Assembly: GCA_003553085.1 (NCBI GenBank)
Contig: PUPH01000155.1
Coordinates: forward strand, 1-56,563
DNA: 56,563 bases
Reading direction: 5' to 3'
DNA from: Thermoplasmata archaeon
Lineage (GTDB): Archaea > Thermoplasmatota > Thermoplasmata > Halarchaeoplasmatales > Halarchaeoplasmataceae
In this document: one piece after another, positions 16,060 to 36,611 of the stretch
Layout of the letters: each line of letters opens with the position of its first letter
How positions within the stretch are numbered: the first letter of the stretch is position 1
Made by a program: the position numbers and the translations under genes
Notes under the pieces: generated by a model
Database searches by the model: none
Told to the model about the DNA's origin: nothing
What the model saw: the letters and a program-made list of their open reading frames with translations, nothing else

Positions 16060-19000
16060 TTACTTATTTCTTGAACCATCATCTCTCATCAATCTTACAT
16101 CGAACCGAGCCCCACCCATCTCGGAATCTCTTATCTCTATACTACCCCCATATTTCTCGATCACCTTTTCAGCTAAAAACAACCCTAGACCGCTGCCTTT
16201 ACCACTATCCGTGGTGTAACCCTTGTTAAATATCCTCCCTTTCTTGCTGTCGGGTATCCCCTTGCCGTCGTCCTCTATCCGACAAACCATCCCGTCATCT
16301 ACCTTTTCGACGGATATCTGGATCCGGTTACACCCCGAATGCTGGATCGAGTTGTTTATTATGTTCGTCAACACTTCATGAAGAAGAGGTCCTCCTATCA
16401 CATATATATCGTCATCGACATATCTCAATCTTAGATCGATCCCCTCTCGATCCACATGGTCAGTTATAGAATCAACGACCGTCGCTACGATGGGAGTTAT
16501 CTTAACCGGTCTGATCTCTTCGATCTGGGCTCTCCTGAGCATGCCTACCTTATCGATCAGTTCGATACTGCCCTCCACACCTTTTTCAGCATTCTGAACA
16601 AAATATTCCATCTCTTCAGATAGTTCGGAAGTTTCTTCGAGCAGCTGCAGGTATCCCTGTATCACCTGTATCTTATTCTTCACATCGTGTCTGAGTAAAG
16701 TATGTAGGAATTCCTCTCGCTTCTCCGCCTCTTTCTTGTCGCTTATGTCTTCTGCCAAACATATGAACCTATCTTCTGTAATTCTTGTGGCAGAGATGCT
16801 CCAATACCCGGAGGATGCATCCTTTCTGATGAAGGGCAGTTCAACATGGATCTCTCCCTTCTCCACTAACCGAGATAAATATTTTAATACTTTATCATAG
16901 GCATCCAGTTCTACCATATCTACCATGTTCATCGATAGAAGTTCTTCGTCCGAATAACCGGTTATCTTGACCGCCGCTTCGTTGACTTCCAAAAAACTAC
17001 CTTCACTATCCATCACCAAAACACCATGTGGTGCATTGTGTATGTAGCTGCCTAATCTTTCTTCACTCTTTTTTAGTTCTTCCCGAACCCTCAATCGAGT
17101 GATGGCTTCTGAGATCATGGCTATGAACAGCTCGGCTAGTTCAAGATCAGTCTCGCTGTAATAAGCTGGAGTATAAGATAGAGCTTGGAAAACACCATGC
17201 TCCTTGATGGGGATGCTCATGGCGGACCTGAAGCGTTCATCCGTGGGCTTCGCCCTTTCAACGCCCTTTAAATCTTTCATAAGATAAGATTCCTGGGATT
17301 GATAAGTCATGCCAGCTACGCCTTCATCATCCATCATACCATGCACGTCTACAAGGTCCTCTTCGGAACTTGCCCTGATCATCAAATAATCCTCTTCATG
17401 GATGATAACACTGCATACATCAAAACCAAGGATCTCCCGTGCCTCTTCAACTGTCAGCTCGTAGAGTTCTCTTAACGTGTTCACCTGCTCGATACGGGGG
17501 GCAGCAGCATACAATCTACGTATCTTATCTTCACCCTCACGAAGTTTTTTTTCGGAGAAGAACTTGTCTCTAGCAAAACTAAGATCTCCACAGACTTCTT
17601 TTAAAAGGTCCTCTTCCTCCTCGGTTATCTCTCTATCACTCGGTAAACAAATCATCATTAGCCCTTTGATATCGTCTCCTTTGATAAAAGGTACTAAAAC
17701 AGAACTATGATCCTCTTCATGCATACATAGATCACAATCTCCACACTGTTCGTAAACACTTTCTATCGTCAGTGATTCGTTTGAATCCATGACCTCTTTC
17801 ATGCATGAAGAGATTTCTTCATACACCGATGCTCGATCAAAAAGTTTGTTTTTATGACCGCCACTGTGAGCGACCGGCCGCAGGTTTCCACGATCATCCA
17901 TTACAAAAATGGATACATCTTGGTAACCCCTTGATTCCGATAAAGTATCACAGGTTTTTTGCATCACTTCATCCAGGTCAGATCCTTTAACTATTATCTG
18001 ATTTACATCACGGATGGCATCCCTCAGAGAACGCATCTCTTCAGCACGCTCTTCCGCCTTCTTTCTATCGGATATGTCCTTCACAAATGCAAATTCGAGT
18101 TCTCTACCGTGGTGGACGATATGATTACTTATGATCTCTACAGGGAATATTTCACCATCCTTACGTTGATTCACCGATTCTTTCTTGATAGAACCTTCCA
18201 TTTTAAGATCATCCCAGAACCCCTCTCTTTCGTCAGGAAAGAATTCGGGATCTATATCCCAAATATGCATCCGTTGAAGTTCGTTCTGAGTGTAACCGAG
18301 CATCTCCGTTACCGCTTCGTTGGTATAGACAAAACGTCCTTCGGGATCCACCCAGAAAACACCTATCGATGCATTATCGACTGAATGTTTGGTGAGTTCC
18401 AATTCCCTTTCTATCTTTCTTTTACCTAGTAGTACTGAGATCTGTTGAACCATAGTTTCTATTGTATGTTTATTTTCGATCTCACTTCCATCGATGGTAA
18501 TAATATAGATACCGCCGTACAATCGGTCGTCGTTTGAAATATCGATAAAAAACACTTTGTCGATATCCGATCCTCCCATTTGATCACATATCTTCTCATT
18601 GAATATCCCGCTGACCACCTGAGAGAAATTCCCCTCGATCTCGACTAGTTCGCTGTCGAGCGAATGCCTTCGCAGGACGATCTTGAGATCTTGTAATCCT
18701 TCCTCAACGCTGGACGTTGGTTCTCCGAATCCGGCTATGCCCTTTATCTTCACCGTGTGTGGACCGTCATCCGACAACGATACTATCACTGGATTTTTTC
18801 CGTTGATCTCGTATATTTTATCTGCTAGATATTGGCAGATTTCACCACGTTCGTCAAGTTTGCCTACAGTAAATATCGCCTCATTTATATGTTTTAATTC
18901 GTCTATGCCCCTTTCTTTCCTCTCTTCTTCCCTCCTCTTATCCGTGATATCCCGTGAGATCCCAAAAACATCCTGTATCTCCCCTCTCCTCCCTCTCAAT

Positions 19001-19689
19001 GGAAAGATCACGTTCTCGATAGTCCTTACCTCTCCGTCTCCACGCTCTATTTCCACTTCTATTTCTCCATTTATCAAGTCGTCTAGGGCTATACCTTTCA
19101 ATCTTTTTCTGAATTCCTCTGTCAACAGTTCACGTGAGTCCGAGCCGATCAAATCATCCCTGGTGTATCCATGGATATCTGCAAAGGCCTGATTTACATA
19201 CTTTATCCCTCCAGAGGTATCTCTTATGTAGAAACCCTCTTGAGATCTCTCAAATATCTGTATCAACAGTTTGTTTTTCCTACTGAGTGACTTCTCCGCA
19301 TTATACCGTTCGAATTCCTGTCTGATCTCACTTGCTAAGACACCATACTGTGATCGCGGATCCCCACCTTTTTGGATGTAACGATCCGCTCCCAGGTTCA
19401 GTGCTTCCATAGCGACTTCTTCCCTACCCCTACCTGTGAATATGATAAAGGGGATGTCCTCTCTACGCTGCTTTCTTAGGATCTTTAAGAACTCCAGCCC
19501 GGTCATTTCAGGCATCTGATAGTCTGAAACGATCACGTCGAAATCATCATTTTCCAACAACTCTAAAGCATCCTTGACGTTAGTGGTTGTAACTACTCTG
19601 AAATCGTCATCCTCTCTCTCCAAGAATACCTTTGATTGGTCGAGAAGACCGGGTTCATCGTCCACGAACAGAATATTTATTCCTTCCAT
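16060..19689 (-). CDS. hybrid multisensor histidine kinase (REC-PAS-GAF-PAS-GAF-PAS-HisKA-HATPase)
   Basis: 1209 aa. REC N-terminus ILFVDDEP..DVIVSDYQMPEMTG. Several PAS modules (SRDITDKRREEE, VKDISDRKKAEE, AEDISDKKEAEK junctions) and GAF modules. H-box LLRHDVKNKIQVIQGYLQLL. ATP-binding motifs NIINNSIQHS, DDGKGIP and GSGLGLFLAEKVIEKYGG. Confidence 0.9.
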   Translation of the reverse strand: MEGINILFVDDEPGLLDQSKVFLEREDDDFRVVTTTNVKDALELLENDDFDVIVSDYQMPEMTGLEFLKILRKQRREDIPFIIFTGRGREEVAMEALNLGADRYIQKGGDPRSQYGVLASEIRQEFERYNAEKSLSRKNKLLIQIFERSQEGFYIRDTSGGIKYVNQAFADIHGYTRDDLIGSDSRELLTEEFRKRLKGIALDDLINGEIEVEIERGDGEVRTIENVIFPLRGRRGEIQDVFGISRDITDKRREEERKERGIDELKHINEAIFTVGKLDERGEICQYLADKIYEINGKNPVIVSLSDDGPHTVKIKGIAGFGEPTSSVEEGLQDLKIVLRRHSLDSELVEIEGNFSQVVSGIFNEKICDQMGGSDIDKVFFIDISNDDRLYGGIYIITIDGSEIENKHTIETMVQQISVLLGKRKIERELELTKHSVDNASIGVFWVDPEGRFVYTNEAVTEMLGYTQNELQRMHIWDIDPEFFPDEREGFWDDLKMEGSIKKESVNQRKDGEIFPVEIISNHIVHHGRELEFAFVKDISDRKKAEERAEEMRSLRDAIRDVNQIIVKGSDLDEVMQKTCDTLSESRGYQDVSIFVMDDRGNLRPVAHSGGHKNKLFDRASVYEEISSCMKEVMDSNESLTIESVYEQCGDCDLCMHEEDHSSVLVPFIKGDDIKGLMMICLPSDREITEEEEDLLKEVCGDLSFARDKFFSEKKLREGEDKIRRLYAAAPRIEQVNTLRELYELTVEEAREILGFDVCSVIIHEEDYLMIRASSEEDLVDVHGMMDDEGVAGMTYQSQESYLMKDLKGVERAKPTDERFRSAMSIPIKEHGVFQALSYTPAYYSETDLELAELFIAMISEAITRLRVREELKKSEERLGSYIHNAPHGVLVMDSEGSFLEVNEAAVKITGYSDEELLSMNMVDMVELDAYDKVLKYLSRLVEKGEIHVELPFIRKDASSGYWSISATRITEDRFICLAEDISDKKEAEKREEFLHTLLRHDVKNKIQVIQGYLQLLEETSELSEEMEYFVQNAEKGVEGSIELIDKVGMLRRAQIEEIRPVKITPIVATVVDSITDHVDREGIDLRLRYVDDDIYVIGGPLLHEVLTNIINNSIQHSGCNRIQISVEKVDDGMVCRIEDDGKGIPDSKKGRIFNKGYTTDSGKGSGLGLFLAEKVIEKYGGSIEIRDSEMGGARFDVRLMRDDGSRNK

Positions 19690-19754: not shown

Positions 19755-20534
19755 TCATGGTCGTAGAGTGCCGAAGAATACCTGCCATGCTAGTGCTGAT
19801 TTCGCAACCAGGCTGAGGACTACATACATCCTCTCTCCGTAAAGATAGTCCTTCCACTTCCCGATTTTTTTGTATTGAAGGTACATGTTCACTGCGAACA
19901 GATTGAAGAATACCAATAATGAGAAATAGATCGCTATAACAAAGTTAGGTACATCCCCCGCCCCTGCTATTATAGAGCCTCCAAAGTATATACCTATCAC
20001 GACCCATGGAGCAGCTCCGGCTATACAGCCGATCACGTAAGAGGTCCAATCCGTCTCATCGGTGAGCTGATTGTGTTTCTCCATCAAAAGCCCAGTCAGG
20101 TTCATCACGGCTACCAAAACGAACAATGCGATCAAGAGTGCGATATCGTAGATCCCAGTCAACATGGCGATGATCACTATCATCACAGACGCACTTATCG
20201 AATACTCATACCAGCGATACGGGTTGATGTGCTTTTTAAGGTGATTTTTGTACCTCTCAAAGAGAACTGTGGATATAAGAAAATGCGCCGCTGCGGAGAT
20301 GAATAAAAACAAGGCGACCAAAGGTGCCAATTGGATCTCGACGAGAGTTTCCGTAACCGGTACGAGTTCTCGTGCCACTTCATCGAACTCCAACCATCTA
20401 GCTTCTATAGTCCATGGAGCATCTCTACTCAGAGCTACCATCAGTAGAGCTTGTAGAAAGTGTAAAACACCCATGGCTAAGTTGAACGACTTCAATCTAC
20501 CATAAACATCCTTATCTGCGGCCACCATATTCAC
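19755..20534 (-). CDS. heliorhodopsin
   Basis: 259-aa 7-TM ORF matching the heliorhodopsin family end to end by eye. Motifs: FNLAMGVLHFLQ, AAAHFLIS, YRWYEYSISASVMIVIIA, GCIAGAAPW, YLQYKKIGKW and GERMYVVLSLVAKSALAWQ. The retinal Lys codon is at 19800..19802. Confidence 0.9.
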   Translation of the reverse strand: MNMVAADKDVYGRLKSFNLAMGVLHFLQALLMVALSRDAPWTIEARWLEFDEVARELVPVTETLVEIQLAPLVALFLFISAAAHFLISTVLFERYKNHLKKHINPYRWYEYSISASVMIVIIAMLTGIYDIALLIALFVLVAVMNLTGLLMEKHNQLTDETDWTSYVIGCIAGAAPWVVIGIYFGGSIIAGAGDVPNFVIAIYFSLLVFFNLFAVNMYLQYKKIGKWKDYLYGERMYVVLSLVAKSALAWQVFFGTLRP

Positions 20535-24750: not shown

Positions 24751-24770
24751 CCTCTCGGGTTAGGTTCTCC

Positions 24771-25075
24771 GCCGGGTCTAACCGGGGCGTTCGGCGTGCC
24801 CTTATACACCGAAAGCGTCGATATGCGGGGGTGACCGCCGGGGACGGCGTAATCATCCCGTTCATGAGCCAAAACCTAACTATGAGACCTCGTCCTTCGG
24901 GATCGGAGGTGTTATCGGGGACAACCGGAGGGTTGTTTCCCTTTAGCTTCACCACGGATAACGGGCCAGGTCCGGAAGGGAGCAGTCCTACCGTGGACTA
25001 CCGATGCTCGATGGGTAGCGGGGTCGAGAAGGGTTTTGGGGTCCTCATGAGCGTGATGAGCGCCAACCTCGGTGA
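24771..25075 (+). ncRNA. archaeal signal recognition particle RNA (7S)
   Basis: The 5' GCCGGGTC (24771..24778) pairs perfectly with the 3' GACCCGGC (25064..25071). The conserved helix-8 motif GGCCAGGTCCGGAAGGGAGCAG lies at 24964..24985. The region is GC-rich, about 300 nt long, and ends in a T6 run. All ORFs predicted across it look spurious. Confidence 0.85.
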
Positions 25076-25077
25076 CC
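25072..25077 (+). terminator. oligo-T terminator after SRP RNA
   Basis: TTTTTT immediately follows the closing helix. Confidence 0.55.
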
Positions 25078-25086
25078 CGGCTTTTT

Positions 25087-25962
25087 TCAATCACTTCTTG
25101 AGCAGATCAACACACCAGCCAACGTGATGGCTGCACCGACAACCGTCATGTATGGGGGTACCTCGTTCAGGATTATGAAGGCCAGTAGTGTTGCTCCCAC
25201 GGGTTCGGCCAATAGGCTTACCGAAACCATGCGTGCTCGGACGAACTTTAGAGCCCAATTATAAAGTGTATGACCGAATATAGTGGGGACCACTGCCAGT
25301 GACAGAAAAAGCAGGTATTCTCTACGAGGGTGGATCGTTATCCCATCACCGAAAAATATCATCAAAACACCTAGAACCAAAGAAGCTATACCGTAAACCA
25401 CGAAAGAGTATGTGGCTGTGGACATCGTCCTCCGCATCTGTCGTCCCCGGATGATATAGCCCGCAAAGGCGAGCATGCCCACTATCGCTAGTAGGTCACC
25501 GAAAAGCGACCAACGCTCGACTCGATAATTTGAAAGAGCCATGACAGCGATACCGAATATAGAAAGTAGGATCGCTAGATATGCTTTTTTATCTGACTTC
25601 TCACCTAGATACCATCCTGACACCCAAGTCACTACTAGTGGATGTGATGTCACCAGAACTACAGAGGATACTACGGAGGTATAAAATAACGATGAGATCC
25701 ATGATGCAAAATGTACTGCTAGGAATATGCCCGTGAAGATCAATACACCCCACTCATAACGGGTGATAGTTCTGATCTCCTCGGAATTAAAGTAGATAAA
25801 TGGTGATAGTATCAAAGTGGCGAAGAACATACGATAAAAAGCAATGGTGAAGGGATGCGAACCGGAAAGCCGAATAAGAACCGCTGCGAAAGACACCGCG
25901 ATCATCGCTACGGGTATAGCGGCTTTAGAAGCTTTTTGAACCGTGTATTTTATGGAAGACAT
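25087..25962 (-). CDS. EamA/DMT family transporter
   Basis: 291 aa, about 10 TM helices, with the two-fold EamA-like repeat architecture. Confidence 0.8.
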   Translation of the reverse strand: MSSIKYTVQKASKAAIPVAMIAVSFAAVLIRLSGSHPFTIAFYRMFFATLILSPFIYFNSEEIRTITRYEWGVLIFTGIFLAVHFASWISSLFYTSVVSSVVLVTSHPLVVTWVSGWYLGEKSDKKAYLAILLSIFGIAVMALSNYRVERWSLFGDLLAIVGMLAFAGYIIRGRQMRRTMSTATYSFVVYGIASLVLGVLMIFFGDGITIHPRREYLLFLSLAVVPTIFGHTLYNWALKFVRARMVSVSLLAEPVGATLLAFIILNEVPPYMTVVGAAITLAGVLICSRSD

Positions 25963-26213
25963 CCAAGGGTAGATTGAACATACCTAGATGAATATTTTCC
26001 TCGCTAAAACTACAAAATGTTAAAATACGATGTTCGAGTTATATTTACCATTGAGGACCCGATTGCCGTAAGGGGTATATAGGATTCAGGTATAAGGGAT
26101 GATAACACCTTGATTCGTTGTATCATATACGAAGAAGTGATAAAAATGATATATGTCGTACTCTCACCGCCAAAAAACCAGTACAAAATAGTCCAAAATG
26201 GAGGTTTATATCG

Positions 26214-29200
26214 ATGACAGATAAGGTAAAGATCATGATCGTTGACGATAATCCAGACGATCGCTCTCTTGCGATAAGAGAACTGCGAAGAAATTTCAGG
26301 GACATAGAGATCATAGAGATCATCGATGCCGATGAGTTGGACGAAGCAATGGATGAGGGTGAATTCGATATAGTGATCACAGATTACCATATAAGATGGA
26401 CCGATGGATTGAAGGTTTTAAGAAGGGTTAAAGAACGTAAACCTGACTGCCCTGTGATCATGTTCACGGGCACAGGGAACGAAGAGGTGGCTGTTCAGGC
26501 GATGAAATCCGGCCTTGAAGACTACGTAGTCAAATCCCCCAAGCATTTCGTGAGACTTTCGGCATCAGTACACTCCGCACTTCAGGATATCAAAGAGCGA
26601 AGGGCGAAGAAAGAATTGGAGGATCTATACACCCGTCTTTTCGAAAGAGTTCCACTTGCGTTATATTCGGTCGATACTCATGGAAGGATACTCGCTGCAA
26701 ACACTGCGATGTTAGACCTCCTAGGGATTGATTCGAAGGATGAATTGAACGAATACAGGGCACAGGATTTTCATATAAAGGATGAAAAAAGGGATGAAGA
26801 AATATCTATATTGGATGAAAGGGGTTTGTTGAAAGGTTATGAGCTTCATCTAAAAAGAGTAGATGGAGAGGATATATGGGTGAAGGATTATGCCTATGTG
26901 ATCAGAGATGAAAAAGGTGAGATCAAATACATAGAAGGTAGCTTGGAAGATATCACAGCTATAAAAAAAGCACATCTAGAATTGAAGGAACAGAGGGATA
27001 AGATCGAACGACTTCATGAAGTGGCTCTGAAGATCTTGGACTGTACGGAGAAGCAGGAGGTCTATGAAACAACCATAGAAGCGGCTAAGAACATACTTGG
27101 ATTCAGCGCCTGTACCATACATGAGGTCGAAGACGACGAATTCGTGGTCAGGGCTACCCAAGACGGAGCTTTGGAGATAGGTAGTAGAAATCCCATCGAG
27201 GGTGTAGCTGGAAAAAGTTACAGGGAGCAGCGTTCGATATTGTTGAAAGATATATCTGAAGTTGACGATGCAAAGCCCGCCGATAAAGAATACCGTTCTG
27301 GGATATCTATACCTATCGGGGAAAAAGGTGTTTTCTTGAACATATCTACGGAAGCTGACGAATTCGACGAAGACGATCTGAAGATGGGAGAGATACTCGT
27401 TTCACACATGACCGACGCTTTGAGACGCATAGACTTCACCGATAGGATGAAGGAGAACGAAGAAAAACTTGAACAGCTGCATCGTGCAGCATCGAAGATG
27501 GAGACGATCATGTACGAAGATGAACTATACGACATCAGCTTAGAGCTAGCTTCAGATGTGCTTGACTTCCAATGGTGCACCATACACATCATCGAAGACG
27601 GGGATCTTATAGTTAAAGCTACCACACACCTTGGAACCGAAGTCGGAACTCATCTATCATTGGACGAAGGGATATACGGTAAAACATGCATGGAGAAGCG
27701 AACATTCATAGTAGATGACGTTACACAACACGAAGACGCAAAACCGTCCAGTCCGGAATTGAGATCGGTAATAAGTGTACCTCTAGGTGAGTTCGGTGAT
27801 CTTCAAGTACTATCGGATGAGGCGGGTCATTTCAATGAAACCGATAAAAAATTCGCCGAGTTACTCGCCAACCACATAACAGAGGCACTCCAGAGGATCA
27901 AGAAAAATAAGCAATTAAAGAAGAGCGAGGAAAGGTATCGCCTTATAACTGAAAATTCATACGACCTTATCGCCATGGTAGGATACGACGGGAAGTTAAC
28001 TTACGCGAATAAGGCATTTCAACGTGTTCTAGGGTATGATAATGAAGAGTTGATCGGTGAATACATTTTTGATATGCTTCACCCTGAAGATAAAGAAGGG
28101 GTTGAGGATATATTCTACCAAACCCTCGAGAAAGGGATACCACACGGGGTGGCACAATTCAAACTTAAAGATGACGATGGAAATTACCGATGGTTCGAAG
28201 CCGTGGGAAGAGGTGTAGAGGGCGAAGATCTGGTGATGGTGGTTTCCAGAGATATCGATAAAAGAAAGAAGGCTGAAATCAAAGCGATGGAAGGAAAGAA
28301 GGTGATAGAAAAACTGCATGAAACCGCTTCGAAGATGATGAACTCTAGCAATGAAGACGATATCTACAAACTCACCATAGAAGCAGCATCCAATATCCTT
28401 GATTTTGATGTTTGTACGATAGCCATCGAAGAGGATGATCACCTATTGATAAAGGAAACAACTGGCGAGGTCTATAGAGAGGGGATCATTTTAGATAAGG
28501 GTGTAGGGATTATCGGAAAGACCTACAACCAAAAAAAGGCCTTCATCATAGATAGAGTAGATGAGCTAGACGAAGCGAGACCGTATAATGAGGAATACAG
28601 ATCTGCATTGAGTGTACCATTTGGGGATATAGGGGTTTTCCAGTCCATCTCTTACACGGAGTCCGATTTCGACGAACACGATCTTGAGAGAGCCGAGATC
28701 CTGATCACACACGCATATGATGTGATCAAACGTATCCGCTATGAAAAAGAACTTGGAGAAAATCAAAAAAGATACAAGAGTATCTTTGAAAATACGGGCA
28801 CCGCTATGGTGATACTCGATCCGGAAATGGAAATCAAGATGTGTAATTTAGAGGCGCAGAATCTATTGGGGTATGATCCGGAGGAGATGACGGATAAAAA
28901 TCTAGCAGATTTTGTATTGGATAAGAAAGAATTGGAAGATCTGTTTGAGATACTCTTCGATGCAGAATATAACGGACAACATAGAGGGTTCTTAAGCATA
29001 TGTAATCGTTATGATGATGTGAAAGATATATTTCTGGTGTCTTCAGTATTACCGGACTATGACAGAATACTAGTATCTATGCTGGATGTGACTCAACAGG
29101 TCGATAACATGAAAAACCTAGAACAATCTCAAGAGTTATTTAGAGTGGCGTTCGAGGGGGCTCCGATCAGTATGCTGCTTGTGGATGAAGGGGGTATCAT

Positions 29201-29456
29201 ATTGGAAGCGAACGAGGCCATGTTGGAATTGGTCGGTATTCCTGAAGACGAGTTATTATCGATGAACCTAGAGGATTTGATCTCAAGCGGTGAAAGTATC
29301 AAAGAGATGCTATTAGATGAAGGGAAGGAAAAGATATCAAAAAAGATCTCGTTGAAGAACAAGGATGACGAAGAGATAATATGCTCGCTCACGGCGATGA
29401 CTGTTAAGCAGGAAGGGCAGGTAGACTGTATGCTAATCTATCTAAAAGAAAGTTAG
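26214..29456 (+). CDS. response-regulator receiver fused to PAS/GAF multisensor array, no recognisable output domain
   Basis: Track ORF trimmed to ATG 26214, with GGAGGT 8 nt upstream. REC motifs IMIVDDNPDD..DIVITDYHIRWTDG. Then PAS-GAF-GAF-PAS-GAF-PAS-PAS. The protein ends inside a PAS module (..DCMLIYLKES) with no HisKA/HATPase, HTH, GGDEF or HD domain seen. Confidence 0.9.
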   Translation: MTDKVKIMIVDDNPDDRSLAIRELRRNFRDIEIIEIIDADELDEAMDEGEFDIVITDYHIRWTDGLKVLRRVKERKPDCPVIMFTGTGNEEVAVQAMKSGLEDYVVKSPKHFVRLSASVHSALQDIKERRAKKELEDLYTRLFERVPLALYSVDTHGRILAANTAMLDLLGIDSKDELNEYRAQDFHIKDEKRDEEISILDERGLLKGYELHLKRVDGEDIWVKDYAYVIRDEKGEIKYIEGSLEDITAIKKAHLELKEQRDKIERLHEVALKILDCTEKQEVYETTIEAAKNILGFSACTIHEVEDDEFVVRATQDGALEIGSRNPIEGVAGKSYREQRSILLKDISEVDDAKPADKEYRSGISIPIGEKGVFLNISTEADEFDEDDLKMGEILVSHMTDALRRIDFTDRMKENEEKLEQLHRAASKMETIMYEDELYDISLELASDVLDFQWCTIHIIEDGDLIVKATTHLGTEVGTHLSLDEGIYGKTCMEKRTFIVDDVTQHEDAKPSSPELRSVISVPLGEFGDLQVLSDEAGHFNETDKKFAELLANHITEALQRIKKNKQLKKSEERYRLITENSYDLIAMVGYDGKLTYANKAFQRVLGYDNEELIGEYIFDMLHPEDKEGVEDIFYQTLEKGIPHGVAQFKLKDDDGNYRWFEAVGRGVEGEDLVMVVSRDIDKRKKAEIKAMEGKKVIEKLHETASKMMNSSNEDDIYKLTIEAASNILDFDVCTIAIEEDDHLLIKETTGEVYREGIILDKGVGIIGKTYNQKKAFIIDRVDELDEARPYNEEYRSALSVPFGDIGVFQSISYTESDFDEHDLERAEILITHAYDVIKRIRYEKELGENQKRYKSIFENTGTAMVILDPEMEIKMCNLEAQNLLGYDPEEMTDKNLADFVLDKKELEDLFEILFDAEYNGQHRGFLSICNRYDDVKDIFLVSSVLPDYDRILVSMLDVTQQVDNMKNLEQSQELFRVAFEGAPISMLLVDEGGIILEANEAMLELVGIPEDELLSMNLEDLISSGESIKEMLLDEGKEKISKKISLKNKDDEEIICSLTAMTVKQEGQVDCMLIYLKES

Positions 29457-29470
29457 GAGTTTGAGAACCG

Positions 29471-30952
29471 ATGGATGAAGAGGGATTCATAGATAGAAAT
29501 GAGGAATGTCGGATCCTCGAAAACATGGTGGAAGAGCTTGATAAAGGCAAGGGGGGTGCCGTGGTTATAACCGGAGAGGCGGGCATGGGTAAATCAACTT
29601 TGATCGAGTGGGTGATCGATAAAGCGGGAGAAAGAGGATACGATTCTTTTCAAGGCTCTTGTATCTCAAGGAACGGACTGGAGTATTATGCGTTCAAAGA
29701 GGCTTTTGAGGATATCGCATCACCAAACGAATCCATACCATCACTACCTCTTGGGATATCCATATTCTCAGACGGTAGGTCCGAGGAGGAGATCCCTTTG
29801 TTCGACTCGGAGAGGCAAAACACATTGAGAGAATCTTTCGAAGCGATCTCCAGCATGGCTTTGGAAACACCCATGATCATCATAATCGAGGAGTTGCATT
29901 GGGCGGATAAATCTACACTTTTGGCATTTAGATACCTATCGGAGCACTCTAGAGATCATCCTATCATGCTGATAGCCTCGTATAGATCCGACGAAGCCGT
30001 AGGCTATCATCTTTTGGATGAAACTATCCACCATCTAAAGCAGAAAGGGATATGTAAAGAAATAGATCTGACTTCCTTCGATGTAGATGATACAAAAGAT
30101 GCGTTGCATAGTTTGCTCGGGGAGGAGCCACCATATTGGTTCGCCCGAGGATTACAATCTAAAACCGATGGGAACCCTCTATTTATAACAGAGACCATAA
30201 AATCTATGCGATCCAAGGGAATACTGATACCTGAAGAGGGGGTTTATCCGGACATAGGATCATATCTCGATTGGCCGTCCACTGTTAAGTATATCGTGGA
30301 AAGGAAAATGGTCAAGCTGGATAAGAAAACAAAAAATCTACTAAAATACGCTAGCATACTCGGACCGTCCTTCCCATACAATCTATTGTCGGACTTCGTA
30401 GATATGGATGAGATGGAGATGTTGGATTACCTCGATACAGCGATCGAACATGGGATATTAGAGGAGATGATCAGTACGGAGGGATATCGTTTTACCCAAC
30501 AGGCAGTAAGAGACGTTCTCTACGAATCTCAATTCAAAGGAAAGAAAAGACTGCTTCATAAAAGAGCGGCAGAGTCCATCGAGAACATATACTATGGGGA
30601 TGAGACACCTTATGGTCGACTTGGTGAACATTACGAGAACGCAAAGATTTACGATAGATCATATGAGAATTACGTCAAAGCTGCGGAAACCGCTGAAGAT
30701 AACGATGAAAAAATAAGATTTTACAAAGCAGCTTTGAATGTTTCAAATAATACATCTATGGATGCTGAGGAGGTAAAAGAAGAATTTGGTAACCTGCTAC
30801 TTGAACATGGTGAAAAGTTGATCGAAGAAGGGAGTGAAGGGGATCTATTTTTAGAGGATGCGAAAGTTATCTTCAAGGATCTCGGTGACGAAGAGCGTCA
30901 TAAAAAAGCCTGCAGATTATTGGGTGAGGAGCAGGACAATATTTATAAATAA
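29471..30952 (+). CDS. AAA_16/STAND-like ATPase with short helical-repeat tail (paralog 2)
   Basis: FIDRNEECRILENMV, Walker A GEAGMGKST and Walker B MIIIIEELHWADKST. It starts 14 nt after the sensor stop, with TAGGAG 12 nt upstream of the ATG. Confidence 0.85.
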   Translation: MDEEGFIDRNEECRILENMVEELDKGKGGAVVITGEAGMGKSTLIEWVIDKAGERGYDSFQGSCISRNGLEYYAFKEAFEDIASPNESIPSLPLGISIFSDGRSEEEIPLFDSERQNTLRESFEAISSMALETPMIIIIEELHWADKSTLLAFRYLSEHSRDHPIMLIASYRSDEAVGYHLLDETIHHLKQKGICKEIDLTSFDVDDTKDALHSLLGEEPPYWFARGLQSKTDGNPLFITETIKSMRSKGILIPEEGVYPDIGSYLDWPSTVKYIVERKMVKLDKKTKNLLKYASILGPSFPYNLLSDFVDMDEMEMLDYLDTAIEHGILEEMISTEGYRFTQQAVRDVLYESQFKGKKRLLHKRAAESIENIYYGDETPYGRLGEHYENAKIYDRSYENYVKAAETAEDNDEKIRFYKAALNVSNNTSMDAEEVKEEFGNLLLEHGEKLIEEGSEGDLFLEDAKVIFKDLGDEERHKKACRLLGEEQDNIYK

Positions 30953-31005
30953 TATCATCTTCTACCATCACTACACCACATGGATGATATGAGTAAAACA
31001 CATAT

Positions 31006-31078
31006 GCGGGTGTGGTGTAGCCTGGTATCACTTAAGCTTGCCAAGCTTGGAACTCGGGTTCAAATCCCGGCACCCGCA
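31006..31078 (+). tRNA. tRNA-Gly (GCC)
   Basis: Cloverleaf folded by hand. Acceptor GCGGGTG/CACCCGC, anticodon arm TAAGC-TTGCCAA-GCTTG, T arm TCGGG-TTCAAAT-CCCGG, discriminator A. No encoded CCA. Confidence 0.9.
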
Positions 31079-31138
31079 TCCATCTTATCTTCTGAAAAAG
31101 TAATCGTATTATAGTTCACGTAATCCATAACACCAAGG

Positions 31139-31504
31139 CTAATCCATTGAAGCAACCTGTTCAAGTATAGAAATCTCTACAGGGGTTAAATCCTTTTTGA
31201 AAATATGTAGGAGTACTTTTTTATGAGCATGTTCATTACCTATAGTAACTCTCCCGTTAGATAATGCTCTGGAAACTCCTTTATCCTCGCCTTTGATTTT
31301 ACATATCAGATATAGTGAATAATCCTTCCTAGGCTTGGCCTCCAATTCGATCCTAGGTTCAACAGTCCATAAGGTATATGCTCCTGAAAATTCATCCCCA
31401 AGGAACACCCTACCGTCTATGCTAGCGACTTCCTCTTTTATCTCAATTTTCCAGGGGGCCGGTAGTTCGATCTTGTAAAACTCATCTTTTTCGATGTCGT
31501 TCAT
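31139..31504 (-). CDS. hypothetical cytoplasmic protein (last gene of island operon)
   Basis: 121-aa ORF with no TM segment and no recognisable motif. Same strand as the five upstream genes. Confidence 0.5.
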   Translation of the reverse strand: MNDIEKDEFYKIELPAPWKIEIKEEVASIDGRVFLGDEFSGAYTLWTVEPRIELEAKPRKDYSLYLICKIKGEDKGVSRALSNGRVTIGNEHAHKKVLLHIFKKDLTPVEISILEQVASMD

Positions 31505-31635
31505 ATATACAACTCGGAAGAATGAAGGGAGTTAGAGAATATATAGCCGTTTTGGAGTTATATCAATATAATAGTTTTACATGGCGAAATTTAGATAGCT
31601 TAAGTGATTTCAAGAAAAAATTGTGCCTCGATAAA

Positions 31636-32607
31636 TCATAAACGCTCTTTTTTGCGCACCCATATCATGAGCGCCACCACGGGAGCTAATACTATCGAAA
31701 GGGCCAATGCGGCGGCTAGTATTGGGTGTATACCTTTGTCTTTTATCTCAATAGTTAAGGTGGCGTTGACCTGCCGGACCTCATCATCGAAGGTCGACAG
31801 GACCAAAAACGGTTCATTTGCAATTGCTTCATTATAGCCCCTCCCGGCCACCAGCTCTTTTACTTTTGTCCTTTCTTCATCGTGACCATCTTTTTCTTCG
31901 AAATAATCAGCAACAACGAAATAATTCGGCCGGCCAAAGACATAAGCTCTTATGGGCACGTCAGATTCAACCCTCAATAAAACGTAATTATCATTCTGAT
32001 CGTATCCCCTAAGCATATCCGTCGGTGTCGTCATACCCCATAAACCAAGTCCATGTCCCCGGCCTTCAAAGCTGATATCTATAGGTCTACCTATCATGTG
32101 TCCTTCATCAAGGTGGTAGTAAAATATCATCTTGATAGAACCCTCGGTTTTCAACGTTAATTCGTTAACCCCCCTCAGGTCTATTCCCGATTTACCCTCT
32201 TCAACCGTAAAGGATTCTCCTCGATTATCAAAGTATCTTATGAGATTTTCATCTTGATCCCAAAAAGACACGTTTCCGTATTTCTGAGGCACCTCACCTC
32301 GATAATCCTCAGACCAGGTAAAACGATAATCAAGTCTCATCTCTTTATAAAATGCAGGGACCTCAAAAGTATACTCGTTTTTACCTGAGAAATATCTAGG
32401 GAAGAATAGATCCTCAAAATGTTCAGGACACTCCTCTTCATGATAGTACTCGAAAGGAAATTCTTTCTCATCTATCTCCCTGCTCTTTAGATAACGGTTG
32501 GATGCCACGGCGACCACCAACAGCATCAGGACCACCAAACATACTTTGATCTTAGGTTTCATGGATCCATGCCTCATATTTTTGTACCTTAACGATAATA
32601 TCACCAC
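31636..32607 (-). CDS. bitopic surface protein, paralog B (N-terminal signal/anchor, C-terminal TM anchor)
   Basis: Likely start at MKPKIKVCLVVLMLLVV (ATG 32562). C-terminal anchor LAAALALSIVLAPVVALMIWVRKKERL. Clear paralog of 34930..35877, sharing HFEDLFFPRYF.G.NEY.F.VP.F, LKT.GS, ISFEGRG, LWGM, AYVFG and QVNAT. Confidence 0.7.
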   Translation of the reverse strand: MVILSLRYKNMRHGSMKPKIKVCLVVLMLLVVAVASNRYLKSREIDEKEFPFEYYHEEECPEHFEDLFFPRYFSGKNEYTFEVPAFYKEMRLDYRFTWSEDYRGEVPQKYGNVSFWDQDENLIRYFDNRGESFTVEEGKSGIDLRGVNELTLKTEGSIKMIFYYHLDEGHMIGRPIDISFEGRGHGLGLWGMTTPTDMLRGYDQNDNYVLLRVESDVPIRAYVFGRPNYFVVADYFEEKDGHDEERTKVKELVAGRGYNEAIANEPFLVLSTFDDEVRQVNATLTIEIKDKGIHPILAAALALSIVLAPVVALMIWVRKKERL

Positions 32608-33299
32608 TCTTTAACCTTATAAACAGCGTATAATAACGATGTTGAGACTAAAATCGGAAAAATGATAAATCCATATGAGTAATAAAAGGTAGTTGGTCTT
32701 TCAGCTTTTATATATACCGAATCTCTAAGGCGTATCCATCGGTCATAACCAGTAGGGTTAACCAAAACATATAAGAAATAATCGCCACCGCGTTCTACGC
32801 TAAAAGAATATGATATGTTATTTTCTATGTCGTTTTCTGTCACTACTATCTCATCGTATTCCAATGTATACACATTTGAAGTACCTTTTTCTATTTTTCT
32901 ATACCAGTCATCATAAAATTCGATACTATCACGGCTCATGTGACCATGATGTCGGTCATAAAAAAGTTCTTCAGCTTCGGGTATCCAGTCTGATCGCAAT
33001 AGAAGCAACTTAACTCTGAACTCCTTTTCAGGTCTATTTATTATATTTACCGTTCCCGTGGCAGTTTCCCCTTCTTCCAGTTCGTACCTTTCATCTAGTC
33101 CATGATCGTCGTAGTTAACCCGTAACTCTAAATTCTGGTACAAAAGATGATACAACTTCATCTCAGGGTCATCATCAAAATCCGAATACATGTTTTCATC
33201 GGGTCTAGTTTCAAGTGGTTCACCAGCCCCTCGTAAGGTAGGGGGAGTACTAACTATAGATATCACCATCAGTATAGCCATTAGATAGGTCCATTTCAT
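32601..33299 (-). CDS. bitopic surface protein (signal peptide plus C-terminal TM anchor)
   Basis: 232 aa. N-terminus MKWTYLMAILMVISIVS and C-terminus FIIFPILVSTSLLYAVYKVKEW. The middle part is acidic and beta-rich. No family recognised. Confidence 0.6.
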   Translation of the reverse strand: MKWTYLMAILMVISIVSTPPTLRGAGEPLETRPDENMYSDFDDDPEMKLYHLLYQNLELRVNYDDHGLDERYELEEGETATGTVNIINRPEKEFRVKLLLLRSDWIPEAEELFYDRHHGHMSRDSIEFYDDWYRKIEKGTSNVYTLEYDEIVVTENDIENNISYSFSVERGGDYFLYVLVNPTGYDRWIRLRDSVYIKAERPTTFYYSYGFIIFPILVSTSLLYAVYKVKEW

Positions 33300-33333
33300 A
33301 CACTCACTTCCCTGATAGATAGATAGGATACAA

Positions 33334-34083
33334 TTATAAAAAAAAAGTCAGAAAGATTGGAAATACCAGCAATAGATTATACATCTCTCCTAAGTATTGA
33401 TGATACATATCCGCATAAAAGAATATCGCATATGGGAAAAGTATGGACACTATATATCTAAGGTTGTCCTCGACCAACGGACGGGGGATCGCGGTCATAG
33501 AAAAAAATGACACGACAGCATATATCGATGTCGCTAGCATTGGAAGGGTCTTCTTTTTAGAAACGATCGATATGAATATCGATAAAGAGAAAACAAAAAG
33601 GCAAACGATGAAACCTAGGAGAACATAGTTTGATATCCACATTATCTTGTACCATGATACCTTTCCCCAATAGTGATAGAGGATTATAGATTGTCCAAGT
33701 ATTATTAGATTGATAAACGCGATCAAAAATATCCCAGCCAGTATCTTACCGATGAAAGTCACCTTTTTTCCATCATTAAGCATGAACAGATTTTGGATCG
33801 TTTTGGCTTCGAATTCGCTTCCGAACAATTTCGATCCAAGATACCCACTGTATATCATCAATATCATATATGAAAAAATGAACCCTATAAATATCGCAAA
33901 GAAATCTCCTTTTGTGAACAGGTCAAAAACATCACCGCATGCTATGCTGATTCCAAATATGATGAGCACAAGTAAAAACAGACTGTGATCTTGAACTTCA
34001 TCTTTTATAGCTTGTTTGAATATGAAATAAATTCTCAGAAAATTATCATTCATGTCCGAAGAACCCCCTGTACGTTTTATCAA
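33334..34083 (-). CDS. ABC-2 type transporter permease
   Basis: About 6 TM helices directly downstream of the ABC ATPase. Likely start is ATG 34053, which would overlap the ATPase stop by 8 nt. Confidence 0.65.
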   Translation of the reverse strand: MIKRTGGSSDMNDNFLRIYFIFKQAIKDEVQDHSLFLLVLIIFGISIACGDVFDLFTKGDFFAIFIGFIFSYMILMIYSGYLGSKLFGSEFEAKTIQNLFMLNDGKKVTFIGKILAGIFLIAFINLIILGQSIILYHYWGKVSWYKIMWISNYVLLGFIVCLFVFSLSIFISIVSKKKTLPMLATSIYAVVSFFSMTAIPRPLVEDNLRYIVSILFPYAIFFYADMYHQYLGEMYNLLLVFPIFLTFFL

Positions 34084-34963
34084 GTGAATTATTTGCCGTG
34101 GAAAATTCTATTTCTTCCTTCAACAACCATTTGAATATATCTTTTTCCACATGAGGGATATTAGTGTCTAAAACTAATTTAACAGAAGTATCATCAACCT
34201 CTATGTCCAACACTCCTTCTATACTCTTCATCTCATGGACTCGATCAATGTCGGATATGTTTACCACGATCTCCTTAGAACGTCGAACCACGTCCATAGC
34301 ACCTATCGGAGACCCGTTATAAGCAACCTCCCCTTCCTTCAAAACGATTAGCCAGTTACATACATCTTCAATATCTCTCAACTGATGTGTTGATATCAAA
34401 ACTGACCTTTTTCCCTTCGATATGTTCGATATCAGACTCATCAAGTCTTGTTTTATTATCGGATCTAGCCCCGCTAACGGTTCATCTAGAATGAGCAAAC
34501 TCGGATCTGTCAGTAAGCATCTCGCTATGCCCAATCTCTTCCTCATACCGTTAGAATAGTTTTTTATTTTTTCCGACCTTTTATTGTAAAGACCAACGGT
34601 TTTCAATTTTTGATCTATCTTATCTTTTTTATTATCAAGCAGATACAATTCGCTGAAATAACGGAGATATTGTTCCCCAGTCGATTGTAAATAATAGCCT
34701 TCATCTTCTCCTAGGTATCCTATCATCGATGTATCACTGCCTTCAACATCGCCTTCCAAAATCTCTAGCTCACCCTGGTACTTCAGAAGCCCTGCCACGC
34801 ACTTTATCAATGTTGTCTTACCCGCACAATTTGGTCCCACTAAGCCTGCGACTTTGCCTCTCGGGATGTACAGAGATACATCTTTCAAAGCATGCAGACT
34901 TCCATAATATTTATTGAGATTTTCGACCCTCAATGCCGTTTTTTCTTTTCTTTGTTTATCCAT
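34046..34963 (-). CDS. ABC transporter ATP-binding protein
   Basis: Walker A GPNCAGKTT, signature YSNGMRKRLGIA, Walker B LLILDEP, H-loop STHQL. Its start overlaps the upstream gene by 34 nt. Confidence 0.9.
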   Translation of the reverse strand: MDKQRKEKTALRVENLNKYYGSLHALKDVSLYIPRGKVAGLVGPNCAGKTTLIKCVAGLLKYQGELEILEGDVEGSDTSMIGYLGEDEGYYLQSTGEQYLRYFSELYLLDNKKDKIDQKLKTVGLYNKRSEKIKNYSNGMRKRLGIARCLLTDPSLLILDEPLAGLDPIIKQDLMSLISNISKGKRSVLISTHQLRDIEDVCNWLIVLKEGEVAYNGSPIGAMDVVRRSKEIVVNISDIDRVHEMKSIEGVLDIEVDDTSVKLVLDTNIPHVEKDIFKWLLKEEIEFSTANNSLDKTYRGFFGHE

Positions 34964-35877
34964 ATCATCATCCCTGCTACAGGTACCAACACTGATGAGA
35001 GAGCTACCACTGTTATCCAGTTAGGATAAGTTTCCTGCTCAATTATCTCAAGTGATACTGTTGCATTTACCTGTTCGATATCATCCCCAAAGGTAGATAA
35101 CACAAGATAAGGCTGGTTCACTATAGATAACTTTCTAACTTCTAGTTCCTTTTCTTTCGATCCCGCTTCATCGTAACTACCTTCTTCGAAGTGATCACGG
35201 AAATGAGAAGGAGAGCCAAATACATATGCTTTGAGAGGATTCTCAGATCTGACCTCGAATACCAAGTAGTGTTTATCTGGATCATAATTCTCGATTCCGT
35301 CCCCCAATCCCATACCCCACAAACAATAACCTATTCCTCTTCCTTCAAAACTGATTTCCACTGAGGATGTGAGTATATGCGTCACGTCTAGATCGATACT
35401 GAATATAGTTCTAAATGAACCCCGTGTCTTTAGAGTCATTGAGGTGACATCATCTAAATTGATCCCTTCGTATCCTCCGCCACCTATGTTTATCTTTCGA
35501 TTATCTGTGGAAAATAAAATATTTCCATTTTGGTCCATTAAAGTGATATTTGCATAGTTCACCGGATCATCCTCTAAACCTTGATCTGGAGGTGATTGAT
35601 ATCCCTGATACTCTTCGTCCCAGGTAAGGTCCCAACTCAAATTTTTATCCTGAAAGAAGGGTGGTACATCAAAGGAGTATTCGTTGATTCCTGTAAAATA
35701 CCTAGGAAAGAACAGGTCCTCAAAATGCTGCAAAGGAGCTTGTTCGTCATAGTGATCAAAGGGAGATTCTTTTTCATCATATATCCCCCGGCCAAAACGC
35801 ATCAGATGACTAGTGGTGAAACATGCCATAAGCATCATCACAATTATCAAGCAACATCTTAATTTCATATCGAACAT
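34930..35877 (-). CDS. bitopic surface protein, paralog A
   Basis: 315 aa. N-terminal hydrophobic CCLIIVMMLMACF and C-terminal anchor WITVVALSSVLVPVAGMMIWINKEKKKRH. Paralog of 31636..32607. Confidence 0.7.
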   Translation of the reverse strand: MFDMKLRCCLIIVMMLMACFTTSHLMRFGRGIYDEKESPFDHYDEQAPLQHFEDLFFPRYFTGINEYSFDVPPFFQDKNLSWDLTWDEEYQGYQSPPDQGLEDDPVNYANITLMDQNGNILFSTDNRKINIGGGGYEGINLDDVTSMTLKTRGSFRTIFSIDLDVTHILTSSVEISFEGRGIGYCLWGMGLGDGIENYDPDKHYLVFEVRSENPLKAYVFGSPSHFRDHFEEGSYDEAGSKEKELEVRKLSIVNQPYLVLSTFGDDIEQVNATVSLEIIEQETYPNWITVVALSSVLVPVAGMMIWINKEKKKRH

Positions 35878-36008
35878 GGTAAATTACACCATTCTATTTA
35901 TAACTTATTATCAGTATAGGTAAAAGCAGAGATGTTGATAGATTTATCAAATCAAAGGATATCATCTTGCCCACAATGTTTTTAAGTGTGGCATCGGATT
36001 CAGCCGAT

Positions 36009-36611
36009 ATGGAACCTTCACATGAGGACATCAAGGAAAAAGAGGGAAACAGATTCAACGCAACGAGCCTGATAGGTGATGTAAAAGTGGGTGAGATGTC
36101 GTACATATGGCCCGGTAGTTTGGTCAGGGGTACGATATCGGGTGTCAAAATAGGTGATGAAGTCACGATATTAGACAACGTGATCATATCAGATTCCCAT
36201 GGAAAAAAGACCGAGATAGACGAAGGAGTCTTCATCTCCCCTGGCTCCGTATTGAAAGGATGTAACATAGGTAAGAACTCTTTCATCGGTATGGACAGTG
36301 TCGTGATGAAAGGTGCAGAGATAGGAGAAGGGGCTGTGATATCCAACGGCAGCATAGTTCCCACCGATATGAAAGTGCCAGAGGGTAAGGTAGTAGCGGG
36401 ATCGCCCGCCGAGGTCGTAGGAGATGTGTCTGAAAGGGACCTTAAGCGGATAAGAAAAATCAGAGAACACGTTAACTGGAGGAGAGAAGAGTATTTCACC
36501 ATGAGGGAAAGAGGGGAGAGATACGGAGTGGACCGGGCTCCATCACGACCGGACGAGATAAGAGCGCTGTTGCTCGATGATGAAGAAAATGGTGGGGCCG
36601 CCGAAATTTGA
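36009..36611 (+). CDS. left-handed beta-helix (hexapeptide repeat) protein, gamma-carbonic-anhydrase-like
   Basis: GDVKVGEMSYIWPGSLVRGTISGVKIGDEVTILDNVII and further hexapeptide repeats. The usual GH...HG metal-ligand stretch reads SPGSVLKG, so it is probably non-catalytic. Track start TTG 35967; ATG 36009 preferred. Confidence 0.75.
   Translation: MEPSHEDIKEKEGNRFNATSLIGDVKVGEMSYIWPGSLVRGTISGVKIGDEVTILDNVIISDSHGKKTEIDEGVFISPGSVLKGCNIGKNSFIGMDSVVMKGAEIGEGAVISNGSIVPTDMKVPEGKVVAGSPAEVVGDVSERDLKRIRKIREHVNWRREEYFTMRERGERYGVDRAPSRPDEIRALLLDDEENGGAAEI

Follow-up and report, generated by a model that had tools for sequence, protein, structure and literature searches.

To what does a response regulator pass its signal when it carries no output domain? 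The question is posed by a 56,563-nucleotide (nt) stretch of Thermoplasmata archaeon DNA (contig PUPH01000155.1, positions 1 to 56,563, assembly GCA_003553085.1; hereafter the window, meaning the whole stretch that was analyzed). Here, the gene for a response regulator built of receiver (REC), PAS and GAF domains is followed closely by the gene for an AAA_16 ATPase, a STAND NTPase reduced to the core of its nucleotide-binding oligomerization domain (NOD) and a short arm. The two genes very probably form a functional unit of some kind. We lean towards a reading in which the regulator gates the NOD, such that a STAND switch is split over two polypeptides and its sensor is supplied in trans.

A regulator built of sensory domains and a minimal STAND ATPase

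The regulator is read from an ATG at 26214 to a TAG stop at 29454-29456. A mechanical open reading frame (ORF) reaches back to a TTG at 26118; we preferred the ATG because GGAGG precedes it and all orthologues align from that methionine. An earlier note on this DNA, drawn from its letters alone, had described 1080 amino acids (aa) in the order REC + PAS-GAF-GAF-PAS-GAF-PAS-PAS, and Pfam scans of the whole protein and of eight segments agree (Table 1). The scans likewise bear out its statement that no kinase, DNA-binding or cyclase output is recognizable: neither Pfam (whole protein and the eight segments) nor NCBIfam (whole protein) returned a match to HisKA, HATPase_c, HTH, GGDEF, EAL or HD. 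The protein does not, as had been supposed, end inside a PAS module. Its last 120 aa are themselves a PAS domain in the segment-wise scan, and this PAS4 (about aa 974-1073) is essentially complete and forms a common end point in all orthologues.

REC is the best-conserved part of the regulator, at 69% mean pairwise identity. Its phospho-acceptor and pocket residues, assigned through motif position and not through structural superposition, are D11, D12, D57 (DIVITDY), T85 (MFTGTG) and K107 (VVKSPK), all invariant in six orthologues (alignment A1). Orthologous regulators measure 494, 652, 660, 663, 783, 786, 1080, 1092 and 1096 aa, and every one keeps REC, PAS1 and the two C-terminal PAS domains. 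What varies is the middle: GAF1-GAF2-PAS2-GAF3 is partly or wholly missing from the shorter proteins (494-786 aa), and the regulator of one locus (L095) has no GAF at all. The orthologues, too, contain only REC, PAS and GAF domains, with HisKA and HATPase_c absent from all of them.

This build fits the output-less archaeal REC-(PAS/GAF)n class exactly, with the same N-terminal REC followed by PAS and GAF domains only and no DNA-binding or enzymatic output. The class is described and abundant, with >750 proteins of REC-PAS type and >450 of REC-GAF type (Galperin et al. 2018, PMC5847659); according to the same census, no member had been investigated by experiment, partners are stated as unknown, and the predicted mode of action is dimerization and protein-protein contacts (PMC5847659). 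The description of the regulator as "output-less" is thus true by the scans but does not set it apart, the class being common in archaea. Just 4 response regulators from 11 Thermoplasmata genomes entered that census (PMC5847659). Whereas the census names no partner for the class, the window regulator has a specific conserved neighbor and a conserved C-terminal PAS tandem.

Two further observations concern the input end of the regulator. Cysteines C300, C455 and C734 in its GAF domains (Table 1) share the motif CTI[HA]xxED, and C300 is invariant in orthologues. A cysteine of a GAF domain binds heme covalently in the Methanosarcina sensor kinase MsmS. Separately, the N-terminal REC+PAS1 cassette (aa 1-271) is 45-52% identical to many bacterial proteins from Chloroflexi, Verrucomicrobia, Nitrospirae and Methylomirabilota, whose architectures include REC-PAS, REC-PAS-HD(-GYP-like), REC-PAS-HisKA and REC-PAS-GerE. 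The search with this cassette returned bacterial REC-PAS proteins and not regulator orthologues, and hence informs on modularity, not on pairing. By sequence similarity it points to a portable, widely exchanged input module, one that has possibly moved between domains of life.

The ATPase encoded next door has intact catalytic motifs. Walker A (GEAGMGKST) and Walker B (IIIIEELHWADKS), both named in the earlier note, are present at aa 35-43 and 136-148, and the Walker B stretch IIIIEELHWAD is invariant among aligned orthologues. Invariant as well is the GxP motif, a STAND hallmark whose role has been described (PMC6468293). An AlphaFold2 (AF2) model built on six orthologues (pLDDT 81.9, pTM 0.74) comprises a P-loop nucleotide-binding domain (NBD), a helical domain (HD), a winged-helix domain (WHD) and about seven C-terminal helices. 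Foldseek searches of the PDB with this model matched Avs3, PH0952 (6MFV), Apaf-1, CED-4, PAB2304 and MalT at E 1e-10 to 1e-9, with probability 1.00 to Avs3, PH0952, Apaf-1, CED-4 and MalT; TM-scores were low (0.3-0.45), as these are multi-domain proteins in different conformations. The predicted structure therefore places the ATPase among STAND proteins, with the tripartite NOD fold NBD-HD-WHD. At 58% mean pairwise identity, the WHD is its most conserved domain.

Beyond this core there is little room for anything else. Walker A starts at residue 35, leaving no N-terminal effector domain, and neither the Pfam scan nor the AF2 model revealed an effector domain in the ATPase. The TPR repeats that the earlier note had ascribed to this 493-aa protein were not recovered: the C-terminal 138 aa gave no Pfam match, TPR included, even at E 0.1. 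This region matches designed consensus TPRs weakly (E 0.003), and its size is about that of the three-hairpin "arm" behind the NOD of PH0952, not that of a sensor array (PMC6468293). Orthologues span 484-510 aa. The ATPase is, in short, a STAND cut down to its nucleotide-switch core (NBD-HD-WHD and a short arm) with catalytic motifs intact.

Two small elements of this core deserve mention. An NBD loop of 32 residues (aa 77-108), with pLDDT <50 in the AF2 model, carries the conserved motif SLPLGISIFS; at the same site, relatives carry either a similar motif, [LM][AG]F[MIL]G, or an extra domain. Among the latter are giant proteins of 1720-1750 aa (P0143, P0145, P0146, P0152 and P0154) with two NOD-TPR units each, one NOD of which holds an insert of ~150 aa at the position of the loop. 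The insert bears the motif ...EE[VI]F[LV]...RRLRP[DE]MDSD...F...V..F...SF and was left unnamed by Pfam at E 1e-4 (P0143). This loop seems to be a favored site for the addition of modules. In addition, 11 of 11 orthologous ATPases have a cysteine close to the C-terminus (~10-15 residues away) within the pattern Cxx[LS][LIF] (ACRLLGEE, aa 480-487, in the window protein).

How rare the minimal build is emerged from a census of the 147 closest family representatives, obtained by exhaustive profile search; word-indexed protein searches with the ATPase had given six orthologues only, and the exhaustive search was needed for the rest. Only 9 of the 147 are minimal, and 5 of these 9 are further orthologues of the window ATPase. 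A C-terminal extension of >250 aa is found in 121, with a TPR array in all four that were scanned (P0142, P0143, P0147 and P0150), and 93 have an N-terminal extension of at least 40 aa. By build, 55 representatives combine a 120-200-aa N-terminal extension with >250 aa at the C-terminus; the one that was scanned, P0147, shows a weak PadR-like winged helix-turn-helix (wHTH) match and TPR repeats, resembling the PH0952 type. A further 38 have no N-terminal extension and >250 aa at the C-terminus (NOD-TPR in build), and 28 join an N-terminal extension of >200 aa to a long C-terminus. P0150, a bacterial-looking protein of 2277 aa from a JGI metagenome, starts with a REC that is fused straight onto a NOD of the same family; TPRs come next, and then another NOD-TPR unit. 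Among the more distant relatives from metagenomes, the N-termini are of Trans_reg_C, protein kinase or kinase+cyclase type. A metagenome scan with the ATPase alignment returned generic AAA_16 proteins only; these were 22-29% identical, measured 900-1490 aa for the most part and had a kinase, cyclase or wHTH at the N-terminus.

Conservation of the gene pair

The earlier note had placed the ATPase start 14 nt after the regulator stop, with a TAGGAG in front of it. The sequence agrees: the 14-nt gap before the ATPase ATG at 29471 reads TAGGAGTTTGAGAACCG, and the TAGGAG is present. A purine-rich Shine-Dalgarno (SD)-like element precedes the ATPase ATG at all seven loci inspected (the window, L001, L002, L004, L006, L007 and L101, the last of which is a distant relative treated below). 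A TATA-box scan, simple in kind and weak as evidence, found candidates only upstream of the regulator, the final 220 nt of its gene yielding none. Promoter and terminator counts across 25900..31200 were at or below shuffle expectation, under a bacterial-type model that is not applicable to archaea. The pair is probably a co-translated operon.

Gene order in relatives, a survey that the earlier note had proposed, returned a tight same-strand pair in 11 of 11 orthologous loci together with one distant pair (28% identity). The 11 loci are the window, L001, L002, L004/L005, L006, L007, L095, L097, L098, L099 and L100; in each, the regulator lies directly upstream of the ATPase on the same strand, and the ATPases are 33-57% identical to that of the window. 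Those relatives with organism names on record are metagenome-assembled genomes (MAGs) of Thermoplasmata or Thermoplasmatota. The ATPase and its flanking genes are also found, identical, on contig PWEC01000010.1 of assembly GCA_003553355.1. Across the 11 loci, the gap between the two genes measures 14, 6, -11, -8, 6, 25, 14, 19, 6, 11 and 79 nt; the last value belongs to L100, and the other ten lie between -11 and +25 nt. Most of the loci also share upstream EamA, methyltransferase, DUF92 and PGM genes, and their downstream genes differ from locus to locus. Two findings weigh more heavily than this adjacency. In one, the L007 pair has a REC of its own and a kinase (PAS-HisKA-HATPase_c) directly upstream on the same strand, the REC standing alone, which completes a four-gene two-component cluster.

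The other is the distant pair, which occupies an unrelated neighborhood. Its ATPase, P0214, is a minimal NOD of 492 aa, 28% identical to the window ATPase and collinear with it over 491 residues; it is preceded, in L101/L102, by a regulator of 370 aa with the architecture REC-PAS-PAS. A histidine kinase stands on each side, and all four genes are on one strand. The best match of the L101 regulator is with the C-terminal PAS tandem of the window regulator (aa 849-1055, E 7e-25) and not with its REC. In an alignment of 12 sequences, the tandem of L101 shows 27-43% identity to its counterparts, and the motifs RYRxIFENxGTA, NR[YF]xDxRD, SxxDIT and ESQExFR are common to all 12. Because the L101 regulator matches the tandem and not REC, and carries the tandem's motifs, the conserved unit across the 12 loci is the C-terminal PAS tandem of the regulator plus the minimal NOD; the REC type, GAF and PAS domains upstream of the tandem vary.

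Neither AAA_16-TPR paralogue of the window is paired with a sensor, and the coupling is thus specific to the minimal form of the ATPase. Among minimal NODs, the neighborhoods compared were those other than P0237, P0252 and P0259. No REC or PAS neighbor was found for the nearest non-minimal relatives (P0133 and P0008), for the two window paralogues or at 77 of 80 generic AAA_16 loci. PAS or GAF neighbors were likewise absent from the 80 generic loci, in a search whose home-made, narrow hidden Markov models had limited sensitivity. In the literature, we found no description of a REC/PAS regulator paired with an AAA_16/STAND protein.

A proposed split switch and its alternatives

How might the two proteins work together? 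In a canonical STAND protein, a sensor in cis clamps the NBD closed in the ADP form, and ligand frees it for ATP-dependent multimerization (PMC6468293). Control by a separate protein has a precedent in the STAND protein MalT, which is regulated by trans-acting MalK, and sensor-NBD contacts are autoinhibitory in PH0952 (PMC6468293). The window ATPase lacks a sensor, be it lost or never present, and in every pair found it is accompanied by a dedicated PAS tandem. On an economical reading, the regulator therefore acts as its sensor in trans.

On the split-STAND reading, the regulator would be a phospho-accepting response regulator whose REC, PAS1 and variable GAF/PAS domains integrate phosphorylation with other cues, probably small molecules or redox state. 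The conformation or dimer state of the regulator would shift when D57 is phosphorylated and when the PAS and GAF domains receive ligand or redox input. Its C-terminal PAS tandem would contact the ATPase and either hold or release the closed, ADP-bound state, and in this way control ATP-dependent oligomerization. The NOD oligomer would then be the signaling state, acting on a target through protein-protein contacts, perhaps by recruiting a third protein or by using the well-conserved WHD. The arm and the SLPLGISIFS motif, within the flexible loop of the NBD, are candidate contact sites. The earlier note had cast the ATPase as the output or oligomerizing switch of the sensor; "output" fits poorly with a protein that has no effector domain, and "oligomerizing switch" is the better half of that proposal. 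Support for a split STAND comes from the conservation of the pair in all 11 orthologous loci, its recurrence in the independent context of L101/L102, the kinase and REC next to it in L007, and the constancy of REC and the terminal PAS tandem while the middle domains come and go. The SD-like element, the lack of a TATA candidate late in the regulator gene, the P0150 fusion, the MalK/MalT and PH0952 precedents, the predicted action of output-less REC-PAS regulators through protein partners (PMC5847659), the invariant motifs, the STAND fold and the rarity of the minimal build add to it. More tentatively, the pair may constitute an undescribed archaeal signaling unit, in which a phospho- and ligand-regulated REC-PAS sensor acts in trans, through a dedicated PAS tandem, on a NOD that lacks both sensor and effector.

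Known systems resemble parts of this arrangement. MalT of E. coli and PH0952 of Pyrococcus horikoshii (6MFV) have the same NOD core, Walker A and B motifs, GxP motif and helical arm as the window ATPase (Foldseek E 2e-10 to 6MFV and 1.6e-9 to MalT 8BOB), and its closest long relatives are wHTH-NOD-TPR proteins of the same MalT/PH0952-like build. However, MalT and PH0952 possess a DNA-binding effector and a TPR/SUPR sensor array, both missing from the window ATPase, and their sensor clamps the NBD in cis, a role for which we propose a separate protein. The NtrC family (REC-AAA+-HTH) is alike in principle, in that a phosphorylated receiver controls oligomerization of a P-loop ATPase, but offers an analogy only: its ATPase belongs to a different clade, and the window system consists of two polypeptides, with PAS domains between REC and ATPase and no HTH. 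The Pfam scan gave no match of the window ATPase to Sigma54_activat (PF00158), and to our knowledge archaea lack sigma-54. Archaeal precedents that join a receiver to a P-loop ATPase include iKaiC-REC and REC-DUF835, and REC-PAS is also found fused to TPR-like modules (Table 2 of PMC5847659). Unlike the pair described here, these are single-protein fusions, with RecA/KaiC-type ATPases that are often inactivated and not a STAND NOD with intact motifs.

Several points weigh against the split-STAND reading. Neither protein has an effector domain, and the model consequently ends without a named output; more generally, we infer co-transcription, contact, the direction of the signal, oligomerization and the final output. 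Adjacency within the orthologous group could reflect vertical inheritance, as the neighborhood is also syntenic, and beyond the orthologues a single independent context was found (L101/L102). The gaps of 99 nt in L101 and 79 nt in L100 mean that translational coupling is not universal. In a mirror-tree comparison, parts of the regulator correlated with the ATPase at r 0.88-0.93, against 0.89 for the control EamA, and partial correlations reached 0.56-0.67 on 28 pairs that are not independent. A REC/PAS fusion to a NOD of this family occurs in just 1 of the 147 census representatives (P0150), and REC genes lie near generic AAA_16 genes in 3 of 80 metagenomic loci, which is no enrichment.

The direction of signaling could also be reversed, with the ATPase serving as an ATP-driven scaffold or remodeler that sets the dimer or oligomer state of the regulator, or the access of a kinase or phosphatase to it, and the regulator contacting the targets. 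The regulator is the larger, multi-surface protein, and regulators of this kind are held to signal via dimerization and partner binding (PMC5847659); the ATPase has no effector domain, the pair sits within kinase clusters in L007 and L101, and all of the evidence for conservation of the pair fits this direction equally well. We nevertheless think it unlikely, given that STAND NTPases are known as ligand-gated switches and not as remodeling motors (PMC6468293), and that the sensor module missing from the ATPase is precisely the one for which the regulator could stand in, so that the regulator-as-sensor direction is the more economical choice.

Less probable still, in our judgment, is that the genes are mere neighbors, their adjacency an inherited synteny within one Thermoplasmata lineage and the ATPase another AAA_16 protein with a role of its own. 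The retention of the EamA, methyltransferase, DUF92 and PGM flanks in most orthologous loci, the two other AAA_16 proteins of the window that lack sensor partners, and a mirror-tree signal no better than that of EamA would all suit such a view. Yet the pair recurs in L101/L102 with wholly different flanks and kinases on both sides, the distance between the two genes is held to -11 to +25 nt and an SD-like element is kept even though the downstream genes differ, and the rare minimal build coincides with the presence of the regulator.

A defense function, in which the ATPase would be an antiviral STAND of Avs-like or BREX-associated type, is very improbable. Its top Foldseek match is Avs3 (PDB 8DGC, E 9e-11), with which it has the NOD fold in common; one orthologue is named "BREX system ATP-binding domain-containing protein", and PF10923 matches the P-loop region weakly. 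But the matches to Apaf-1, CED-4, MalT and PH0952 are equally strong, as expected of a shared NOD fold, and PADLOC hits extend over only 38-40 residues of the P-loop (the best, E 2e-4, over 38 residues). In contrast to Avs proteins, the window ATPase has no PADLOC model match, no nuclease, protease or other effector and no long sensor array of target-binding repeats, and it lies at a fixed locus, syntenic among housekeeping genes, in place of a variable defense island. We rejected the defense reading after PADLOC, run on the ATPase, the regulator and both paralogues, gave matches at the level of P-loop or TPR only.

That the two genes are decayed remnants, a hybrid histidine kinase shorn of its kinase end and an AAA_16-TPR protein shorn of its TPR array, is scarcely credible: intact counterparts do exist in the window (the full REC-PAS-GAF-...-HATPase_c hybrid kinase at 16060..19689, 25-34% identical to the regulator over PAS/GAF modules, and two full AAA_16-TPR proteins), but orthologous regulators end alike, and the ATPases, at 33-57% identity, all measure 484-510 aa. 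Neither frameshifts nor internal stops occur, and the motifs for catalysis and phospho-acceptance do not vary. We rejected recent truncation or pseudogenization on the grounds that conserved lengths and ends and invariant motifs mark stable architectures.

Surroundings of the pair and wider significance

The rest of the window holds several features of separate interest (Table 1). An archaeal SRP RNA at 24770-25082 marks the DNA as archaeal. Both AAA_16-TPR paralogues announced in the earlier note carry AAA_16 and strong TPR arrays; 42 nt after the first, on the same strand, comes a gene for a 416-aa Rce1-like membrane protein of the CAAX-protease family. The 1209-aa hybrid kinase (REC-PAS-GAF-HATPase_c) lies 66 nt downstream of a heliorhodopsin gene on the same strand. 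Linkage of heliorhodopsin and kinase genes has already been published, Thermoplasmata's phylum Thermoplasmatota included (PMC8612252). The window encodes no other histidine kinase; some 6.5 kb separate this one from the pair, and that it feeds the regulator would be pure speculation.

Downstream of the pair, a low-GC block of ~5.5 kb with minus-strand genes (GC 38-39%, compared with about 45% in the window) is bounded by two tRNA genes. It contains an ABC-2 transporter pair and five ORFs without a Pfam or PHROG match, and two of these five (31636..32607 and 34930..35877) have an 80-nt stretch of 73% identity in common. In L002, the same tRNA-Gly and tRNA-Pro are only about 700 nt apart, which makes the block an insertion or variable region. 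No att-like repeat, integrase or phage family was found in it.

Table 1. Coordinates of the regulator-ATPase pair, its motifs and other features of the window.
Feature	Position	Strand	Basis or remark
Response-regulator gene, 1080 aa, REC-PAS-GAF-GAF-PAS-GAF-PAS-PAS	26214..29456	+	ORF translation, Pfam and NCBIfam scans, alignment A1
REC+PAS1 cassette (aa 1-271)	26214..27026	+	Bacterial relatives
REC receiver (aa 7-108)	26232..26537	+	PF00072, 65.3 bits whole protein, 69.7 bits segment; cut-off 30.2
PAS1 (about aa 139-249)	26628..26960	+	Segment-wise Pfam
Variable middle: GAF1 (aa 279-403), GAF2 (435-561), PAS2 (573-685), GAF3 (712-837)	27048..28724	+	Pfam segments, A1 indels, per-domain coverage
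GAF cysteines C300, C455, C734	27111..27113, 27576..27578, 28413..28415	+	CTI[HA]xxED
C-terminal PAS tandem: PAS3 (about aa 853-960), PAS4 (about 974-1073)	28770..29432	+	Pfam; 12-sequence alignment
GGAG Shine-Dalgarno-like element	29456..29459	+	Overlaps TAG stop; 11 nt before ATPase ATG
Minimal STAND NTPase gene, AAA_16, 493 aa	29471..30952	+	Pfam AAA_16 E 1.2e-15; AF2 model; Foldseek; architecture census
Walker A / P-loop GEAGMGKST (aa 35-43)	29573..29599	+	G35, G38, G40, K41 invariant (ATPase alignment)
SLPLGISIFS motif in NBD loop	29741..29770	+	Conserved in ATPase alignment A2, also in P0136/P0137
Walker B and following signature IIIIEELHWADKS (aa 136-148)	29876..29914	+	E140, L142, H143, D146, K147 invariant
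GxP motif GNPLF (aa 234-238), helical domain	30170..30184	+	G234-N-P-L-F238 invariant
Winged-helix domain (about aa 263-355)	30257..30535	+	Model secondary structure
C-terminal helical region (aa 356-493, about seven helices), arm- or TPR-like	30536..30949	+	AF2 model
ACRLLGEE with C-terminal cysteine (aa 480-487)	30908..30931	+	Orthologous ATPases
AAA_16 + strong TPR array paralogue, 765 aa	6677..8974		Pfam
Rce1-like CAAX-protease-family protein	9016..10266		Same strand as 6677..8974
Hybrid REC-PAS-GAF-HATPase_c kinase	16060..19689	-
Heliorhodopsin gene	19755..20534	-	PF18761, E 2e-100
Archaeal signal recognition particle (SRP) RNA	24770-25082
tRNA-Gly(GCC)	31005-31082
Low-GC block	31139..36502	-
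ABC-2 transporter pair	33334..34963	-	Within low-GC block
tRNA-Pro(UGG)	36590-36667
AAA_16 + strong TPR array paralogue	41460..44627		Pfam

What, then, would the pair mean for archaeal signaling? Most archaeal response regulators lack a DNA-binding output. A conserved, operon-linked neighbor provides a concrete candidate partner for the orphan class of REC-PAS/GAF regulators, seen so far in about a dozen uncultured genomes of Thermoplasmata/Thermoplasmatota type. A NOD-plus-arm core without a cis sensor or effector would, moreover, be a simple system in which trans gating of a nucleotide switch could be examined. If the split-STAND reading is true, the ATPase would be the first identified partner for the output-less archaeal REC-PAS/GAF class, and two-component phosphorelays would be linked to STAND oligomerization.

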